A stretch of 23,439 nt of DNA from a virus. Taxonomy: Duplodnaviria > Heunggongvirae > Uroviricota > Caudoviricetes. The translations under genes were made by a program, and so were the position numbers. Positions 1 through 13,979 of this stretch are shown in pieces. Positions within the stretch are counted from its first letter, which is position 1, and every line of letters starts with the position of its first letter. Where the stretch lies: positions 1-23,439 of the IMG/VR virus record IMGVR_UViG_3300045988_013110. One strand, 5' to 3'. The notes below the pieces were generated by a model. The model made no database searches, was not told the DNA's origin, and saw only the letters and a program-made list of their open reading frames with translations.

Positions 1-57
1 TGGGAATGATTAACAGCTAACTCATAGCAACTCATTCCTATTCAGATACTAATTTAA

Positions 58-88
58 CCCTCTGTTTTTACAGAGGGTTTTTGTTTTT
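58..88 (+). terminator. rho-independent terminator, probably of the flanking upstream gene
   Basis: Stem CCCTCTG (58-64) / CAGAGGG (71-77), 6-nt loop, followed by TTTTTGTTTTT. Confidence 0.6.
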
Positions 89-136
89 ATGTATTCATTT
101 CTATTCACTCTACACCATATTTTTCGTCGGTACAGG

Positions 137-174
137 TGACGGTATTACCTTAAAGGTATACTCTCATACCGTCA
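137..174. promoter_or_regulatory. inverted-repeat cluster upstream of int containing one operator-like site (TTACC-TTAAA-GGTAT, 145-159)
   Basis: TGACGGTAT (137-145) and ATACCGTCA (166-174) form a 9-bp inverted repeat; between them lies a one-mismatch copy of the TTACC-N5-GGTAA motif. Confidence 0.35.
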
Positions 175-201
175 TGAAAATGGTTTCTATACGGGTGAAT
201 T

Positions 202-1452
202 GTGCTTACCGATACAAAATTAAAAAACCTCAAGCCGCAGGACAAACTGTACAAGGTCTCCGATCGTGACGGGCTGTATGTAGCTGTGCTTACGTCAGGC
301 ACGGTCTCGTTTCGCTATGACTACCGTATCAACGGTCGCCGCGAAACACTGGTAATCGGGCAGTATGGGCGTGACGGTATCAGCCTGGCAGAAGCGCGGG
401 AAGAACTGATTGCTGCAAAGAAGCTGCTTAAAGCAGGCCAGTCACCGGCTGCGGCTAAACGTGACGGTATCAAAAAGATTCGTGGTGCCGAGACGTTTGC
501 GGTACATACCGACAGTTATATGAAACACGTTATCCTGGCTGACAGTACCCGCGCAATGAAGCAGGCGGTGATCGACCGTGACATACTTCCGGTTCTTGGC
601 AACAAAATGATGGCTGAAATTACCACATCGATGGTTCGTGATTTGTGTGACCGGATTGTCGAACGCGGTGGTCGGGCAACAGCAGTACAGGCCAGGGAGA
701 TCATCAGCAGCGTATACCGTCACGCCAATGACCGTGGTCATGGTTTGTTTAATCCTGCGGCTGACATTAAACCTTCGTCTATCGCCATATTTAAACCACG
801 AGAGCGAACACTGACACCAGAAGAAATTGGCCTGTTCTTCCGCACGCTGGATGCCATTGGTGCTATGGGCACTATGAAAATGGCTTTAAAGCTGGTGCTT
901 ATCACTATGGTTCGTAAAGGCGAATTCACCAATGCAACGTGGGATGAAATAGATTTTAAAAAATGGACATGGACAATTCCTTCAGAGCGCATGAAGGGAA
1001 GCCGGGCGCACGTTATTTACCTGCCTAAACAGGCACAGGATATATTGGTTGGGTTGCAGATGTGCGCTGGTGGAAGTGAATATCTGGTTCCTGGTCGTTA
1101 CAATTTCCGGAAGCCATTATCTAATGCCGCGCTGAACTCTCTGATCGACAGAACGGTGAAAATAATAAATGAAGATGGTGAGCATATTCAGGGCTTCACC
1201 GTACACGATATGCGCCGTACAGCCAGTACGTTGTTGCATGAGGCTGGTTATCCTTCAGACTGGATTGAAAAGGCTCTGGCACATGAGCAGAAAGGTGTGC
1301 GCGCCGTATATAACAAAGCGGAATACGCCAGACAGCGCGCCTACATGTTGCAGCAGTGGGCCGATATGATTGATTCCTGGATTAACGGGGAGCATACGGA
1401 TCTGATTCCGTTCTCCCCGTCGAAGTTTGAGAAGTGGATGGCGGGGGAATAA
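202..1452 (+). CDS. int: tyrosine recombinase / phage integrase (P4-type)
   Basis: 416-aa ORF with GTG start. N-terminal arm-binding-type region (LTDTKLKNLKP...YRINGRRETLVIG) and C-terminal catalytic region (HDMRRTASTLLHEAG ... VRAVYNKAEY) are typical of P4-family integrases. Confidence 0.9.
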   Translation: MLTDTKLKNLKPQDKLYKVSDRDGLYVAVLTSGTVSFRYDYRINGRRETLVIGQYGRDGISLAEAREELIAAKKLLKAGQSPAAAKRDGIKKIRGAETFAVHTDSYMKHVILADSTRAMKQAVIDRDILPVLGNKMMAEITTSMVRDLCDRIVERGGRATAVQAREIISSVYRHANDRGHGLFNPAADIKPSSIAIFKPRERTLTPEEIGLFFRTLDAIGAMGTMKMALKLVLITMVRKGEFTNATWDEIDFKKWTWTIPSERMKGSRAHVIYLPKQAQDILVGLQMCAGGSEYLVPGRYNFRKPLSNAALNSLIDRTVKIINEDGEHIQGFTVHDMRRTASTLLHEAGYPSDWIEKALAHEQKGVRAVYNKAEYARQRAYMLQQWADMIDSWINGEHTDLIPFSPSKFEKWMAGE

Positions 1453-1455
1453 CGT

Positions 1456-1650
1456 TTAATTATTCTGCTGATTTTCTTCCATCTCGGCTTCTGCTGCCAG
1501 TGATTCAATTTTGTTTTCGAATATTGCTGACAGTGTTGCAAATTCAGCATCAGTGACAGCGGGAATTGGAACAAACCTGATCCCGCTGTGTGCAAGCATG
1601 TTTGCAGTTTCAAGGCATTTTCTTAAATCTGCTGGTGATGCCCTGTTCAT
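1456..1650 (-). CDS. hypothetical small protein (64 aa), translationally coupled to the methyltransferase
   Basis: Internal ATG at 1650..1648 overlaps the methyltransferase stop (ATGA). Acidic C-terminus (EAEMEENQQNN). Ends 3 bp from the convergent integrase stop. Confidence 0.45.
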   Translation of the reverse strand: MNRASPADLRKCLETANMLAHSGIRFVPIPAVTDAEFATLSAIFENKIESLAAEAEMEENQQNN

Positions 1651-2297
1651 GCAGCACGCTCCCGCCCCTGGTTGTCTGTTGGTGACAGCGGAGCATTGCT
1701 GAATGCATTTGTTAATCTGGCAATATCCAACGCGTATCCAGGGTGTAGTTGCACTGCCGGGTCTTCGCACTGATTACCCCAAACATCGAAACCATGAGAC
1801 GACTGGCGGGCGAACAGTTCAATGCGAGAAACATCGCCTAACAATTGCACAAGTTTTTCACGAACGATATCTGGCTTTCTTGAATGCTCAAGCCGCGGTG
1901 CGGTAAATGACTGAACGATCCCTGCATTAATGCGCGTAGGTAGTTTTCCATTTACCGCAAACAGGCAATCTTCACTATTGGCGCGAGTCATGTGTCCCAT
2001 ACCCATAACCAGTTTATCTGGTTGTCGACTACCACATTTTATCCACGTGAAGCCCTTCATGGTCATCAGACGGAATCCCCAGGCTTCAACAACTTTTAGT
2101 GCTTCGAGTGGTTGTGTTGGCACCCACCACATGGCCAACAGACAGTTTTCATCGGCCAAATCCCACACAGGAAGGCGGCAGATATCCAGCACACTCATAA
2201 CCGGATATTTAAAACCGGCACCGCGATTACCATCTGCGGCTTTGTCCCGGTATACCCAGGGTGGATCTGCATAGATTAGTGTGTATTTCTTAGTCAT
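1647..2297 (-). CDS. DNA N6-adenine methyltransferase (MT-A70 / Dam-like, orphan)
   Basis: Motif IYADPPW matches the DPPW signature of N6-adenine methyltransferases. ATG at 2297 preceded by GGGGTGG; no adjacent restriction endonuclease candidate. Confidence 0.8.
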   Translation of the reverse strand: MTKKYTLIYADPPWVYRDKAADGNRGAGFKYPVMSVLDICRLPVWDLADENCLLAMWWVPTQPLEALKVVEAWGFRLMTMKGFTWIKCGSRQPDKLVMGMGHMTRANSEDCLFAVNGKLPTRINAGIVQSFTAPRLEHSRKPDIVREKLVQLLGDVSRIELFARQSSHGFDVWGNQCEDPAVQLHPGYALDIARLTNAFSNAPLSPTDNQGRERAA

Positions 2298-2589
2298 AAA
2301 CCACCCCACAACATCCTATGCCGCTATAGTCGCCACGGCGAAGGCCGTTACCTTTTGTGATACATTGGTCCCTGCGAACCGCGATCCTTGCACGTTCAAC
2401 ATCACCAGAAGCAACATCCATACACTGAAGCCAAAGGTGAGCGGCAATGCGGAACTGCCCTTTTTTCTCTCTTTCAATCGCGCGTTTTTCGATCTCTATC
2501 GCCGCAGGAGTAACGGCGATAACCTTTGAAGGACGGCGCATTGAAACCTTGTTCATGTGATATTTTTCAAGTCGGCTTAACTTTCTCAC
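2290..2589 (-). CDS. hypothetical protein
   Basis: 99-aa ORF; GAGGG Shine-Dalgarno about 10 nt upstream of ATG 2589; stop overlaps the methyltransferase start region. Confidence 0.4.
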   Translation of the reverse strand: MRKLSRLEKYHMNKVSMRRPSKVIAVTPAAIEIEKRAIEREKKGQFRIAAHLWLQCMDVASGDVERARIAVRRDQCITKGNGLRRGDYSGIGCCGVVYD

Positions 2590-2698
2590 TTAATCCAACC
2601 CTCTCTGAAAATTAATGCCAGCAGATAAAGCCATGCTGAAACAGAGGCCAGGAATAAGTACCATCCTGACCATTTGCTCCAGTGCCTTAGCAGCACAC

Positions 2699-2947
2699 TC
2701 ATGCAGCGTTTCTCACAGGACGATATACACGTTGCTGAACAGGAGGCTTTTTACCCTGGAACTCTGCCGGGCTTGCTGCCTGACGTTCATCAAGCCAACG
2801 CTCAACTTCGTCACGGTTCCATGCGCAGCGTTTGTCAGTGATATACCAGCGTTTAGGAAATTCACCTGCGCGCTCCATACGGTCGATAGTGCTCCATGAC
2901 AGTGGCACCACCGCCAGGAGTTTCTTCTTATCTAATGCACCTTTCAT
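2699..2947 (-). CDS. AlpA-family DNA-binding protein / probable excisionase
   Basis: Core LSWSTIDRMERAGEFPKRWYITDKRCAWNRDEVERWLDER resembles AlpA/Xis-type HTH proteins that pair with P4-type integrases. GAGAGG Shine-Dalgarno upstream of ATG 2947. Confidence 0.65.
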   Translation of the reverse strand: MKGALDKKKLLAVVPLSWSTIDRMERAGEFPKRWYITDKRCAWNRDEVERWLDERQAASPAEFQGKKPPVQQRVYRPVRNAA

Positions 2948-2996
2948 AAATACCTCTCTTGGTTGCAGTGCGGCGCGTGTGGCGCCGCGGTGGTGG

Positions 2997-3914
2997 TTAC
3001 ATAGATGTTTCGTTTAATTCTTCCCGACGAACGCTGTAAACGTCGGTGGCTTTTGCCAGCAGTTCGTCATCATCTGAAAGTTTTTGTGCAATGTATTTGT
3101 AAGCCTTATCCAGTTCGGAGACAGTGCTGTAATTCATCGCTGCGCTGGTAAAGGCCATCAGCACTTCTTCTGGATCACGGCTATCCGCTTTACGCGTTTG
3201 CTCATCATGCTTTTTCACTGGTTTAGCGTTGATCAGACTGTTCATGCTGGATGCTGTGCCGTGCTTTGCCTGACTTCTTGGAGTTACGTCACGTTCAATA
3301 ATGTCAGGTGAGTCGATATATTTACCTTCCATTTCCTCAGCTGTGGCTTGTTGACCAATCTCCGGCCATGCTTTACGTAATGCCTGTGCCTCTGCGCATT
3401 TTGCCAACTGCGCATAAGGGCGCTTTTTCCACATGGCATTTGGTGCCGATGTGTCACGCCCCCCAGTTGCATAGTTCTCAATCCAGTATTCTTTGGCGCT
3501 AAACTCTACGATTTCCCCGCTTGCCATTCGCTTGCTGACGGTGTACTTACACCACTGAGGGAAGGTAACCTCCACGCCTGAAAGCGTTTGTGTTACATCT
3601 GGACCGAACTCAGGTTCATTAGCGCCTGCGTAATCGCCGGAACGGTAGGCCTGAATGCGATAAAGTCCAATGCCAGGCATGACCACGTCGCGCCATTCAT
3701 TCTTTCCACTCTTCGAGTCTTTAACACTCATTGGTACCAGGTGTACCGGCTTAAGAAGAGGATCGAGTTGACGCGCCCGGCAGTAATCGACTGCCATCAT
3801 TACCGATTCATCTTTTGCCCCAGGGTAAATACTGTTTTTCAGAGCGCTCCATGTAACTTCATCGATTCCCCGAATAGCCAACACATCATTGGTGATTGCA
3901 ATTTCGTTGCTCAT
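2997..3914 (-). CDS. RecT/Red-beta family single-strand annealing protein
   Basis: Segments HLVPMSVKDSKSGKNEW and AMWKKRPYAQLAKCAEAQALRKAWPE resemble the RecT family by recollection. ATG 3914 overlaps the exonuclease stop (ATGA). Confidence 0.8.
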   Translation of the reverse strand: MSNEIAITNDVLAIRGIDEVTWSALKNSIYPGAKDESVMMAVDYCRARQLDPLLKPVHLVPMSVKDSKSGKNEWRDVVMPGIGLYRIQAYRSGDYAGANEPEFGPDVTQTLSGVEVTFPQWCKYTVSKRMASGEIVEFSAKEYWIENYATGGRDTSAPNAMWKKRPYAQLAKCAEAQALRKAWPEIGQQATAEEMEGKYIDSPDIIERDVTPRSQAKHGTASSMNSLINAKPVKKHDEQTRKADSRDPEEVLMAFTSAAMNYSTVSELDKAYKYIAQKLSDDDELLAKATDVYSVRREELNETSM

Positions 3915-4732
3915 ACGTACATATCCTGTTTGCGTGCCCACTCAGGGCGTTTAATAATTTCCACGCCGCCCCATTCATCGCTGATGCGGCATTCGTGATA
4001 GGTATTCAGATCCCGGCGGAACAGAGCGTGCCCGGCATCGACATCCGGCGCATCCAGCCCGAACACGCGTACCGGATACCGACCACAATCAATGCTTTCG
4101 CTCACGGCAAGAAAGAAAAAACCATGCGGCTGACCAGTAACCCTCATTGCGCCTTCGCGGTACATTGCGTCCTGCACGTGGTAGCGGAATTCCTCGATGT
4201 GACGTGCAAAACGGTCCATATCTGCAACCTTTTTCACGTCGACGATCACGTTGTGCTCGTTCAGCCATTTGTCTGGACGAATTCGGCACAACTCACCCGT
4301 CTCTTCATCGTTCCAGTACATTGATGCTTCGCAGTAACCAGGTGCTTCCAGCATCCAGCGTGCCGCCGGGTGAGCCATTGCGCTATCACGCATCAGCTCC
4401 AGTTTCCGCCACTGCTCGGCATCAAGTACCGTAATCCCCATATCCGCTACATCACGAAGAAATGCTTCTTCGTCAGCTTTACCTTGTTTCGTCCGACGAT
4501 CGAACTTCGGTGAAACAATGAAGCGTTTGTCGAATTCTCCAGGCTCCAGAAGCAGACAGTGCAATGCGGTTCCCATATCCAGTGCAGACTTTTTCTCTTC
4601 GTCTTCTGGTGCTGCCTGAACCCATTTAAGAAGCGCCGGATTCTTGGCAACCATGTCCAGTTGCGACTTACTCACGCCGTCACCGGCGTGGTAGTCTTCG
4701 TTGCTGATGTCGAAATAAATTCCCGGTTTCAT
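3911..4732 (-). CDS. RecE-type recombination exonuclease (PD-(D/E)XK fold)
   Basis: N-terminal GIYFDISNEDYHAGDGVSKSQL and downstream acidic/Lys residues resemble the RecE C-terminal nuclease domain. Sits directly upstream of the annealase, as in RecET modules. Confidence 0.75.
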   Translation of the reverse strand: MKPGIYFDISNEDYHAGDGVSKSQLDMVAKNPALLKWVQAAPEDEEKKSALDMGTALHCLLLEPGEFDKRFIVSPKFDRRTKQGKADEEAFLRDVADMGITVLDAEQWRKLELMRDSAMAHPAARWMLEAPGYCEASMYWNDEETGELCRIRPDKWLNEHNVIVDVKKVADMDRFARHIEEFRYHVQDAMYREGAMRVTGQPHGFFFLAVSESIDCGRYPVRVFGLDAPDVDAGHALFRRDLNTYHECRISDEWGGVEIIKRPEWARKQDMYV

Positions 4733-5189: not shown

Positions 5190-5279
5190 TTACCTCGGTC
5201 TGTTACCGTTGGGGTAATAATTATGCTTATTTGGTTTGGTGTCAATAGATATGAGTTAAAAAAATTACCCGTAAGGTAA
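5190..5279. promoter_or_regulatory. OL-like operator pair plus half-site upstream of the leftward operon
   Basis: Perfect TTACC-N5-GGTAA at 5203-5217 and 5265-5279 (centres 62 bp apart), plus a TTACC half-site at 5190-5194. Confidence 0.55.
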
Positions 5280-5291
5280 TCTATCTGGCAA

Positions 5292-5315
5292 TAAAAAAGC
5301 CGCCATGAGGCGGCT
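5292..5315 (-). terminator. rho-independent terminator downstream of the repressor gene
   Basis: Stem GCCGCC / GGCGGC with loop ATGA; on the minus strand it is followed by TTTTTT. Confidence 0.6.
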
Positions 5316-5336
5316 TACTTACTGAAAACTATAGTT

Positions 5337-8787: not shown

Positions 8788-9372
8788 ATGAAACCGAGTT
8801 ATGAAGAACTTGAAGAGCAACTGAACAGATCTCGACGTCTCTGTGATGCTGCTCTGGCTAATGAGCAGGCATGGGAAACAGCCATGATGCAGGCATGCGG
8901 TGAAGACGGTCCGAAGTCAGTAGCTGATAAGTTTGCGGAACTTGAAGCCAGATGCGCGGCGCTGGCGGCGGAGAGTGCGCTGGCTCGTAAAGCAGTTCAG
9001 GCATTTTGCGATGTTGTTGGCGACAGCACCGAGGTTATCTGCGAGGAGATTGGGCGAGATGGCGTTCTGGTTATTTTGGAGGCAATGAAGGCAACAGGAA
9101 ATATGTCAGCCACCGACGCTTTCCTGGCTGAAATACGTGCGGAGGCACGCAACGAGGGGATTAACTACACCGCAAGCCGTCTTGCTGCTGCGTTCAATCA
9201 CGGATTTATCAATAAGTCTTTGCGTGAAGTTTTCGACGTTACACGCATGATTTTGTCAGCGAAAGAAGAGTTGGCTAATGAACCGCATCCGATTGATGGC
9301 CTGTCCGGTGAATATGCGGAGAAATCCCTTGAAGAATGGGCGGAACAGATTCGCAAAGGAGGCAACCAGTGA
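8788..9372 (+). CDS. hypothetical protein
   Basis: 194-aa ORF with GAGGATAAAG Shine-Dalgarno; predicted helical/coiled-coil N-terminus. Confidence 0.5.
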   Translation: MKPSYEELEEQLNRSRRLCDAALANEQAWETAMMQACGEDGPKSVADKFAELEARCAALAAESALARKAVQAFCDVVGDSTEVICEEIGRDGVLVILEAMKATGNMSATDAFLAEIRAEARNEGINYTASRLAAAFNHGFINKSLREVFDVTRMILSAKEELANEPHPIDGLSGEYAEKSLEEWAEQIRKGGNQ

Positions 9373-9593
9373 GCGGAAAAAGAATGACTAACAGAGAGCT
9401 TGTCGATGCCGCGATTAAGCTTGCTGGTGATTTTTATTCAATGATGGGGTACACGCATCGCCCAGGCTTCAAATATTGGGAGTCTCCTCACCCGCAAGAG
9501 CAACTGGTATTTCAAATGGCCTGCCGTGCTTTTGAGGTTATTCGCGGTTCTGATGTGATGGACGCCGTTGCCGACTTGGAGGATGAAGAGTGA
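9369..9593 (+). CDS. hypothetical protein
   Basis: GTG start at 9369 overlaps the upstream stop (GTGA) and is preceded by AAGGAGG at a 6-nt spacing. Confidence 0.45.
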   Translation: MSGKRMTNRELVDAAIKLAGDFYSMMGYTHRPGFKYWESPHPQEQLVFQMACRAFEVIRGSDVMDAVADLEDEE

Positions 9594-9955
9594 GCGAGAT
9601 TGACTATCAGGCACTGCGTGAGGCGGCAGTAGCAATTGAAACAGTGGCAACGCCTCAAAAATTGCAGGCGTTTCGGATAAAGGTCACACCGTCGGTGGTA
9701 CTGGCGCTGCTGGATGAAATTAAGCGCCTGGAGGACACAAATATTGATGCTATGTGCCGAATTGCAGAACTGGAAGCGAGGGAAGTCGAGTTACCGGACG
9801 GCTACGAACCCCGTATGGGCCACCCAATAAATAGCGGTGAGCGGGTGGTAATGATGCCGCACCACTTTGGTGGATGGCTGGACCGCTTCGACGTCGAACA
9901 CGCATTGCAGGCAGCGGAGATCAAATTCAAAACAGCGGGGGGTGAGTACGAATGA
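9590..9955 (+). CDS. hypothetical protein, Ead/Ea22-like
   Basis: N-terminus MSEIDYQALREAAVAIE... resembles Ead/Ea22-like prophage proteins by recollection. Confidence 0.45.
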   Translation: MSEIDYQALREAAVAIETVATPQKLQAFRIKVTPSVVLALLDEIKRLEDTNIDAMCRIAELEAREVELPDGYEPRMGHPINSGERVVMMPHHFGGWLDRFDVEHALQAAEIKFKTAGGEYE

Positions 9956-10185
9956 TTGAGGGTATTAGCAATAAATCGTTGAACACAGCATGTGTCGACG
10001 GTGGGTTGTTGTACAAAGTGACGTTTACGCAAATCGACAACGAAGATAACGCATTCACTGTGATTTACACGTCGCCAGCGATGGCGCAGAAGTGGGTGGA
10101 TCTGCACAGGCTATGTGGTTTTCGTGTTGAGTGGGGGTGTTATGAGATGCGATGCAGATGGCATCATCGGGGGGATGAAAAATGA
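9952..10185 (+). CDS. hypothetical protein
   Basis: 77-aa ORF, start overlapping the upstream gene. Confidence 0.4.
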   Translation: MIEGISNKSLNTACVDGGLLYKVTFTQIDNEDNAFTVIYTSPAMAQKWVDLHRLCGFRVEWGCYEMRCRWHHRGDEK

Positions 10186-10559
10186 GCACTACGCTTGAGC
10201 AATGGCTGGAACAGCAGCACGGCAAAATTGATGTTGATTGCGGCTGTGTGAGCACTGAAACGCTTATGCACTGGATGCGTGTGGCGTATGAGGCTGGCAA
10301 CTCTCCGGTAACTCCGGAGAGTTGGATAAGCTGTAGTGAACGAATGCCAGAAATGGGAGAGCGACAATGCTATGTGTTAGCTGCTGACTTTAAAAACAAC
10401 TACCCACCAAGCATCCCCAACACTCAGGTCGGCGTATATGGCGACTGGTTTAATGATGGCAAGCCCACTTGGGATGACGGTGGTGGCGAAGACCTGTATC
10501 TCAAGGAGGTAACCCACTGGATGCCGCTGCCAGAACCGCCGGAGCAGGATGGTGAATGA
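10182..10559 (+). CDS. DUF551-like phage protein
   Basis: C-terminal THWMPLPEPP resembles the DUF551 family signature. Confidence 0.55.
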   Translation: MSTTLEQWLEQQHGKIDVDCGCVSTETLMHWMRVAYEAGNSPVTPESWISCSERMPEMGERQCYVLAADFKNNYPPSIPNTQVGVYGDWFNDGKPTWDDGGGEDLYLKEVTHWMPLPEPPEQDGE

Positions 10560-10645
10560 TGCCGCCAGTTAAAGTTGTGATTATCACTTTGGTGATGATA
10601 GTGATTGCGAGAATCATGTCTGGTGAAGTTTGGTGGATATGGTAA
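10556..10645 (+). CDS. candidate hydrophobic micropeptide (29 aa)
   Basis: ATG overlaps the upstream stop (ATGA); GGA-rich Shine-Dalgarno. Product MMPPVKVVIITLVMIVIARIMSGEVWWIW looks like a single transmembrane helix. Below the ORF-track cutoff. Confidence 0.25.
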   Translation: MMPPVKVVIITLVMIVIARIMSGEVWWIW

Positions 10646-10983
10646 TGGCTAAGGCAGCAGCAGAGCGCAAAGCCGCTCAGAGAGCCAGACAAGCTGCATC
10701 TGGTGTGCGTAAGCTGGAGATTGTGCTTGATGCTCAGGAAATTGAAATGCTGGAGCGTAACTGTGCCACACGTCGCCCCGGGCGTGCGCCTTACGAATTT
10801 GGTGAGTATATAGCGTTACTGATCCGCCAGGATGATGCGCGCGTGCACGGGCGTATAAAATCGATCAGCAGAAAACGTTGCGGTAAGTGCGGCGAGAGAG
10901 TTCCTGTGAATTCATGCCCGTGTAATGGTGACTCGCAATGCTGGGTGACTAAAGGCTGGCATGAAACGAAATTAATATTGTGA
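10630..10983 (+). CDS. hypothetical protein with C-terminal Cys cluster
   Basis: C-terminus RCGKCGERVPVNSCPCNGDSQC; last gene before the terminator that precedes the packaging operon. The start could instead be ATG 10645. Confidence 0.45.
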   Translation: MVDMVMAKAAAERKAAQRARQAASGVRKLEIVLDAQEIEMLERNCATRRPGRAPYEFGEYIALLIRQDDARVHGRIKSISRKRCGKCGERVPVNSCPCNGDSQCWVTKGWHETKLIL

Positions 10984-11032
10984 CATGTCACGAGTGGGTT
11001 ATGCATGATGAATTTGATGGGTTTTGAATACT

Positions 11033-13902: not shown

Positions 13903-13979
13903 TGGCGTGGCATGCAGGATTCGAACCTGCGACCAACCGCTTAGAAGGCGGTTGCTCTGTCCAACTGAGCTAATGCCAC
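13903..13979 (-). tRNA. tRNA-Arg (anticodon UCU)
   Basis: Hand-folded 77-nt cloverleaf with CCA: acceptor GTGGCAT/ATGCCAC, D-arm GCTC-AGTTGGACA-GAGC, anticodon stem ACCGC/GCGGT with loop CTTCTAA (anticodon TCT), T-arm GCAGG-TTCGAAT-CCTGC, discriminator G. Confidence 0.85.

Follow-up and report, generated by a model that had tools for sequence, protein, structure and literature searches.

The locus considered here raises the question of what a lone adenine methyltransferase does at the end of a prophage operon, and whether the two small genes that overlap it belong to the same system. It lies at positions 1456-2589 of a virus record of 23,439 nucleotides (nt) from IMG/VR (IMGVR_UViG_3300045988_013110; the whole stretch is called the window below). 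An initial annotation, made from the sequence alone, had seen there a Dam-like methyltransferase forming an anti-restriction or epigenetic module with two small proteins as cofactors. According to the present analysis, the enzyme is a member of the MT-A70 (METTL3-like, DPPW) family and not of the Dam family, and the trio consists of separately inherited accessory genes, not of one co-evolved unit. It is moderately probable, judging by the comparisons given below, that the enzyme is of the type found in phage phiPA8: its choice of substrate would depend on a partner protein, and its effect would be on prophage development.

Three open reading frames (ORFs) on the minus strand occupy the region, in the arrangement described before. 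In the order of transcription they encode a PerC-family protein of 99 amino acids (aa) with a GTG start (2290..2589; Pfam PF06069, phrog_868), an MT-A70 family adenine-N6 methyltransferase of 216 aa (1647..2297; Pfam PF05063, PADLOC MTase_II) and a 64-aa homologue of lambda Orf63 (DUF1382) with an ATG start and an acidic C-terminus (1456..1650; Pfam PF07131, PDB 8DSB). Profile searches were performed with Pfam (gathering scores; also queried at E up to 0.1), NCBIfam, PHROGs and PADLOC. Because all three products match Pfam families above the gathering scores (PerC 5.7e-07, MT-A70 1.9e-21, DUF1382 1.8e-30) and PHROGs matches cover each of them at full length, the ORFs are real genes and not chance ORFs.

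Both overlaps claimed for the methyltransferase gene are present. Its start shares eight nt, ATGACTAA, with the stop of the PerC-like gene (2290..2297, minus strand), and its stop forms an ATGA with the start of the Orf63-like gene (1647..1650, minus strand); a GGAG Shine-Dalgarno sequence lies inside the last methyltransferase codons, ahead of the ATGA. An alternative GTG at 2309 would add four further codons to the enzyme. The 8-nt overlap is essentially unchanged among near-identical relatives, being exact in 78 of the 80 IMG/VR loci listed, in which the methyltransferase is at least 97% identical to the window enzyme. No restriction endonuclease was found among the selected unannotated ORFs of the window scanned with Pfam and PADLOC, nor in the annotation read for the corresponding part of the close relative phiV10 and for the copy in E. 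coli AF14. The enzyme is therefore an orphan without a restriction partner, as had been stated.

The Dam-like label has to be replaced. The sole Pfam match of the enzyme at E up to 0.1 is MT-A70 (PF05063; 77.2 bits, cutoff 23.9), residues 5-176 corresponding to profile positions 1-172 of 172. NCBIfam returned nothing, and Dam-type profiles (MethyltransfD12, phage Dam) were matched neither in Pfam at that threshold nor in NCBIfam. PADLOC classes the enzyme as MTase_II (9e-77). The DPPW motif stands at residues 11-14 (YADPPWVY at 9-16); D11, P12, P13 and W14 are invariant in one alignment (A1), and in another (A5) W14 is invariant and D11-P13 are nearly so. The best PDB sequence matches are proteins of the Tetrahymena MTA1 complex and METTL3. 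Structures were modelled with AlphaFold2 (AF2) and compared by Foldseek; the model of the enzyme (predicted TM-score 0.70) has METTL3 and MTA1 as its top matches (E about 1e-12, TM 0.6). It includes no extra target-recognition domain, and its tail (195-216) is disordered. The fold matches are solely to enzymes acting as obligate hetero-oligomers (METTL3, MTA1c).

METTL3-METTL14 and the Tetrahymena complex MTA1-MTA9-p1-p2, which provide these best sequence and structure matches, contain a catalytic subunit that depends on non-catalytic or nucleic-acid-binding partners. They differ from the phage system in that identity to the window enzyme is about 20-25% and no inactive MT-A70 paralogue is encoded in the window as a second subunit. 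Dam-family and non-specific phage adenine methylases (E. coli and T4 Dam, Hia5, M.EcoGII) are likewise orphan, prophage-borne adenine-N6 methyltransferases, but they belong to another family with another motif order. Among the enzymes tried as relatives, M.EcoGIX (plasmid-borne), M.EcoGII (349 aa, with DPPY and a target-recognition domain) and Hia5 (Dam-related, with DPPY) were rejected.

The closest studied relative is gp5 of phiPA8 (M.EcoPA8orf6770P), a Shiga toxin 2 (Stx2) phage (Gong, Chakraborty and Koudelka, NAR 2024, PMC10810198). By itself gp5 has weak, non-specific activity. The gene immediately upstream codes for PNB-2, for which a winged helix is predicted; the two proteins associate 1:1, and the resulting complex prefers 16S rRNA and 30S subunits (PMC10810198). 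A DPPW-dependent rise in spontaneous prophage induction and virulence was reported for the phiPA8 enzyme, and its promoter is induced near stationary phase according to preliminary RNA sequencing cited by the authors as a personal communication (PMC10810198).

The window enzyme and gp5 are identical at 154 of 187 positions (82%) over residues 1-187, the remaining tail being unrelated, and the Orf63-like proteins of the two phages are 51% identical. In the phiPA8 locus (L170), the integrase gene is followed by convergent genes for DUF1627, DUF1382, the methyltransferase, PNB-2 and PNB-1. The two loci are thus alike in the MT-A70 core with DPPW, in their place as the last genes of a leftward operon convergent with the integrase gene, in the small gene overlapping the methyltransferase start and in the DUF1382/Orf63-like gene immediately downstream. 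They differ in the upstream gene, which in phiPA8 encodes the 143-aa winged-helix PNB-2 and in the window the unrelated PerC-family protein; no alignment between these two was obtained at E up to 100. The 27 C-terminal residues of the STEC type (STEC: E. coli strains that produce Shiga toxin), the proposed contact with PNB-2, are replaced in the window by an unrelated tail of 29 residues (188-216), which is specific to phiV10-type phages. Upstream of the pair the window also lacks an intergenic promoter or terminator, and its phage is an epsilon15-like podovirus, whereas phiPA8 is a lambdoid Stx phage. Because the enzyme core (82%) and the Orf63-like protein (51%) are shared, and the tail and the upstream gene are unrelated, the window carries a phiPA8-type integrase-proximal module in which the upstream gene and the enzyme tail have been swapped.

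The following mode of action could be derived from this homology. The region, which does close the leftward early operon on its integrase side as the initial annotation had it, would be the counterpart of the exo-xis accessory region of lambda. The middle gene is predicted to encode a catalytically intact MT-A70 adenine-N6 methyltransferase with a core as in gp5. The enzyme would have no target-recognition domain of its own, would perform poorly alone and would receive its substrate preference from a partner protein. PNB-2 is absent, and the only candidate partner in the equivalent position is the PerC-family protein, encoded immediately upstream with overlapping stop and start. Methylation of host or phage nucleic acid would tune prophage induction or lytic development, which seems likelier than a classical role in protecting against a cognate restriction enzyme. 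The Orf63-like protein downstream would be an independent pro-lytic developmental factor.

Gene identities, overlaps, orphan status, mosaic neighbourhoods and the fold come from the comparisons themselves; substrate, partner and time of expression are proposed. The homology to phiPA8 bears on two earlier claims. The anti-restriction role is not what this relative suggests, since a preference for 16S rRNA and an effect on induction, not an action against restriction, are reported for it (PMC10810198). The idea that small proteins serve as cofactors has an experimental precedent for the upstream position (PNB-2 of phiPA8) and none for the downstream gene. A lack of new methylated DNA motifs in lysogens would not count against methyltransferase function: an RNA target, a GATC target in a dam+ host or silence of the gene in the lysogenic state would each give this result. 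M.EcoGII is an enzyme for which such silence is reported.

The upstream gene is assigned to the PerC family by PF06069 (30.2 bits, cutoff 22.6, residues 35-80, 5.7e-07) and by a full-length match to phrog_868 (1.6e-61); the ANR model of NCBIfam scores below its cutoff (23.6 against 32). In the AF2 model the protein is a helical bundle with no helix-turn-helix, and its MIT/TPR-like resemblance is weak (E above 0.2). Databases start the gene at 83 aa (Prokaryotic Genome Annotation Pipeline, PGAP) or 88 aa (phiV10), and the GTG at 2589 gives 99 aa. The 83-aa and 88-aa starts look truncated. The 99-aa start is favoured because residues 1-16 are conserved across genera in diverged homologues without internal Met codons, with Y10 and H11 nearly invariant, and because gp31 of epsilon15 is annotated at 99 aa, with a matching 4-nt overlap. 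In the window this overlap is a GTGA (2586-2589, minus strand) between the GTG start and the TGA stop of a gene for a 38-aa membrane protein (2586..2702, minus strand; phrog_17484, 4.7e-27), a homologue of epsilon15 gp32. The PerC-like gene is a backbone gene of epsilon15-like phages.

The neighbourhoods of more distant relatives were compared in 80 species-representative genomes (methyltransferases 36-87% identical to the window enzyme), neighbours being searched within 3 kb. PNB-2 homologues were found upstream of the relatives in none of these 80 species-level loci. PerC-domain ORFs form the largest family of upstream neighbours, occurring on the methyltransferase strand in 21 of the 80; about nine abut or overlap the methyltransferase start, and three more lie about 150 nt away. 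The pairing is seen in two settings, the integrase-proximal early-left region of Uetakevirus and the replication/nin region of lambdoid prophages, and involves two subclades of the enzyme, which share 42-46% and 66-87% identity with the query. Many of the PerC-domain neighbours are 140-170 aa long and have an apparent N-terminal winged-helix part (weak PaaX match, L131) before the PerC domain. NinB and NinG are also common upstream neighbours. Single PerC-like queries in IMG/VR, made to see how often an MT-A70 gene follows, gave one and three close relatives.

Several arrangements on the upstream side are recorded here as observations. In one group of lambdoid prophages of enterobacteria (L105, L107, L108, L129 and L131, at about 2500-3000), the long PerC form (142-170 aa) is encoded between the replication gene and that of the MT-A70 enzyme. 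A DGQHR-domain protein is encoded immediately upstream of the MT-A70 gene in SPN1S (L175 2720-3715), and a 355-aa protein, apparently with a DGQHR motif by its sequence, has the same place in a Citrobacter prophage (L097 1937-3004). DGQHR domains are known from DNA-modification systems. Small proteins are encoded directly upstream of MT-A70 genes in prophages that are unrelated, namely in Tyrion (gp30, L176 2663-2890) and in two further loci (L148 2642-3001, L143 2645-2998). Among the small upstream proteins, Tyrion gp30 alone is annotated as winged-helix, and several others look winged-helix-like by eye. By BLAST they are mutually unrelated, apart from one weak match (the L107 long form to L148, E 0.001). 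These recurring small winged-helix-like upstream proteins echo PNB-2 of phiPA8.

Two further lines of evidence for a partnership of the PerC-like protein and the enzyme were tried. The tail type of the methyltransferase was compared with PerC adjacency, and no pattern of covariation was found. PerC-methyltransferase fusions were considered as 'Rosetta stone' evidence and rejected, being rare variants that are probably mutations or sequencing errors: P0005, with three members, is an in-frame fusion made by a 1-nt deletion in the 8-nt overlap, and P0003 is a deletion fusion. In P0237, PerC is fused to DUF1382 and the methyltransferase is lost.

The downstream gene was identified by homology as well. 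Its 64-aa product, with 10 acidic and 5 basic residues, matches PF07131 with 105.2 bits against a cutoff of 27 (1.8e-30), and lambda Orf63 (PDB 8DSB) at E 8e-13, the IRFVPIP central strand being conserved. The conserved positions of Orf63, including the invariant F-V-P strand, have been described, as has the protein itself, a dimeric, pro-lytic exo-xis protein with a helix-binding cleft (PMC10869804). The tblastn match in lambda is orf63, between orf60a and orf61. Both genes are early leftward accessory genes between the recombination genes and int. The differences are an identity of about 50% and the neighbours: in lambda these are orf60a and orf61, with no methyltransferase, whereas the window homologue is the last gene and is coupled to one. 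The view of the small ORFs as unknown proteins can therefore be given up, the downstream one being a lambda Orf63 homologue and the upstream one a PerC-family protein.

The slot after the methyltransferase is variable. Among the 80 near-identical IMG/VR loci it holds an Orf63-like gene in 59, a NinI-type phosphatase gene in 17 and other genes in 4, and the ATGA junction is retained in all 80, whichever gene follows. In L009 a NinI-type Ser/Thr phosphatase gene (1554-2213) takes the last slot before int, and in L010 an 82-aa gene and an antirepressor-like gene (3148-4371) are found there; the ATGA is kept in both. In the species-level loci no DUF1382 ORF lies within 3 kb of the methyltransferase (0 of 80), and 54 families are represented among the genes that follow it, with RusA, LexA-like, Q, excisionase-like and C5-cytosine methylase proteins as examples. 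A 4-nt stop-start overlap with the next gene, (A/G/T)TGA, was counted in 48 of 85 relatives, with GGAG in the last codons.

Since most operon junctions are 4-nt overlaps and the ATGA cassette is kept whatever follows, the coupling is a generic property of the methyltransferase 3' end and not evidence of partnership. Translational coupling, which had been taken as the sign of a functional unit, loses that meaning with a cassette present in 48 of 85 relatives and followed by 54 downstream families. The methyltransferase tail was also considered as an element binding Orf63 and rejected: an identical tail occurs with an Orf63-like gene, a NinI phosphatase gene or an 83-aa gene downstream, and the Stx2 type, with an Orf63-like gene downstream, carries a different tail. 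Lambda, 434 and Stx1 phages have orf63 without an adjoining methyltransferase gene. The Orf63-like protein is an independent exo-xis-type factor in a freely exchangeable last slot of the operon.

These neighbourhoods make it very improbable that the three proteins form one anti-restriction or epigenetic unit, in which the acidic 64-aa protein would be a cofactor or a DNA mimic, as the initial annotation supposed. Such a unit would be consistent with the ATGA coupling and the acidic C-terminus, with the recurrence of the DUF1382-methyltransferase pair in Stx2 phages (51% and 82% identity), and with the hydrophobic cleft of Orf63, which binds an amphipathic helix and has no known natural partner (PMC10869804). 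However, phosphatase or other genes take the Orf63 slot beside near-identical methyltransferases, whose tail stays constant, none of the 80 species-level loci shows the pair, and orf63 stands without the enzyme in the lambda, 434 and Stx1 phages just named. The phiPA8 holoenzyme, moreover, was rebuilt from the methyltransferase and PNB-2, without the DUF1382 product (PMC10810198). A two-gene holoenzyme cassette, in which the PerC-family protein replaces PNB-2, binds the MT-A70 subunit and sets its substrate, is unlikely too, with more to be said for it. The position and the stop-start overlap are those of PNB-2 in phiPA8, PerC ORFs are the largest upstream family (21 of 80, about nine abutting or overlapping), and the pairing spans two genomic settings and two subclades. 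The long forms fuse a winged-helix part to the PerC domain, PNB-2 also being a predicted winged-helix protein, and the modelled helical bundle, with its weak MIT/TPR-like resemblance and no helix-turn-helix, could suit a partner. Yet other Uetakeviruses interpose one or two genes (DUF1317, a 75-aa winged helix-turn-helix protein in Tyrion, or the DGQHR protein in SPN1S), 59 of the 80 species-level loci have no PerC-like gene within 3 kb, and the tail of the enzyme does not track PerC adjacency. The PerC-like protein has no sequence similarity to PNB-2, and none of its fold matches reaches significance (E above 0.2). In enteropathogenic and enterohaemorrhagic E. coli (EPEC and EHEC), PerC and Pch are not known to have an adjacent methyltransferase, which also counts against a role as partner. 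The adjacency may merely reflect shared backbone synteny and a recombination-prone junction.

It is rather unlikely, though with an appreciable chance, that the enzyme is a classical orphan phage DNA methyltransferase, a homodimer acting in the lytic cycle, probably on GATC or another short motif. Methylation of progeny DNA would let the phage evade restriction when it enters its next host, and the flanking genes would be irrelevant. The enzyme falls in the Type II methyltransferase class of PADLOC (9e-77), and beta-class methyltransferases work in dimeric form (PMC7544214). In many loci the enzyme has nin-region genes (NinB, NinG, RusA) around it but no small partner upstream, and in SPN1S and L097 relatives adjoin a gene for a DGQHR protein. 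Part of the evidence for this explanation weighs directly against the phiPA8-type reading favoured here. REBASE annotates relatives as m6A enzymes specific for GATC, and overproduced M.EcoGV modifies GATC in vivo (PMC10810198); relatives adjoin genes for C5-cytosine DNA methylases in five loci (L135, L140, L149, L152, L168). The GATC annotation and activity and the C5-cytosine neighbours favour a DNA target. The favoured reading is further weakened by the replacement of the 27-residue proposed PNB-2 contact by an unrelated tail, because of which the properties of the phiPA8 enzyme may not transfer to the phiV10-type enzyme, and by the phiPA8 rRNA assignment itself, which consists of S-adenosylmethionine-consumption assays without an identified modified base (PMC10810198). 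In addition, a consensus scan predicted no promoter directly upstream of the PerC-like gene. A DNA methyltransferase of the classical kind is opposed by the purified phiPA8 enzyme (82% identical), which is weak on DNA, including unmethylated GATC, and by its holoenzyme, which is more than 13-fold more active on RNA (PMC10810198). The model of the window enzyme, with no target-recognition domain, and the redundancy of a GATC enzyme in a dam+ E. coli host also speak against it. The preferred explanation remains a phiPA8-type MT-A70 enzyme that would have its substrate set by a partner.

A phiV10-like (Uetakevirus, epsilon15-like) prophage, inserted beside guaA, makes up the window. Over positions 1-3000 it matches E. 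coli AF14 with 100% identity, and positions 1400-2650 show about 98% DNA identity to phage phiV10, in which the same genes are annotated as p32 (DUF1382), p33 (DNA methyltransferase) and p34 (PerC-family transcriptional activator). Gene order and annotations are alike, with essentially no difference, and phiV10 carries the same module as the window. Other epsilon15-like (Uetakevirus) members differ in the genes between the PerC-like gene and the methyltransferase and in those after the methyltransferase. Elsewhere in the prophage, a nin-like region at about 8788-11000 differs from the otherwise identical AF14 prophage (mosaic replacement) and contains genes of the Ea22-like and DUF551 kinds along with two ORFs, of 194 and 117 aa, that lack a family match. 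A tRNA-Arg gene (anticodon tct) is located between the terminase and portal genes (13903-13979, minus strand).

The leftward operon could be transcribed from a sigma-70-like promoter candidate, TTGACA-17-AATTAT (5217..5245, minus strand), which was found by consensus scan and lies directly beyond a terminator-like hairpin (5297-5316) after the repressor gene. The order of the operon is a 50-aa gene, a hypothetical gene, a PD-(D/E)XK exonuclease gene, Bet/RecT and an AlpA-like excisionase/regulator gene (2699..2947, minus strand; Pfam Phage_AlpA 6.4e-05, phrog_66), followed by the 38-aa membrane protein gene and the PerC-like, methyltransferase and Orf63-like genes; most junctions are 4-nt overlaps. 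No minus-strand terminator was predicted from the promoter candidate down to 1456. Between bet and the AlpA-like gene stands a GC-rich hairpin without a T-run, GCGGCGC-CACAC-GCGCCGC (2970-2988, minus strand), with a folding z-score of only -1.6; epsilon15 annotates a 'transcriptional pausing' stem-loop at the equivalent place. At the other end lies the gene of a P4-type tyrosine integrase (202..1452, plus strand; Pfam Arm-DNA-bind_3 and Phage_integrase), which adjoins guaA in AF14. It is convergent with the leftward operon, 3 nt separate the stop codons (1452-1456) and no terminator is predicted there; leftward transcripts would therefore run antisense into int.

The region is a known, widely distributed mosaic accessory module, already annotated in phiV10 (p32-p34). 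It was found in 569 of 5426 complete E. coli genomes, so that about one in ten of them carries it. If the PerC-like protein is not a partner of the enzyme, the region is a well-annotated mosaic stretch of accessory genes. PerC-family proteins (PerC, Pch) are so far known only as poorly understood virulence 'transcriptional activators'. That some of them may serve the MT-A70 methyltransferases of prophages as partner or specificity subunits, directing these to an RNA or DNA target and tuning induction, is decidedly improbable; if true, it would be parallel to PNB-2/gp5 of phiPA8 and to METTL3/METTL14, and would give a mechanistic lead for the PerC/Pch family. The two-subunit, rRNA-preferring enzyme of the close relative is reported to raise spontaneous induction of the Stx prophage and virulence (PMC10810198). 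The phiV10-type module, with the core of that enzyme kept and the upstream gene and tail changed, would thus be a natural test of substrate choice in minimal MT-A70 enzymes.

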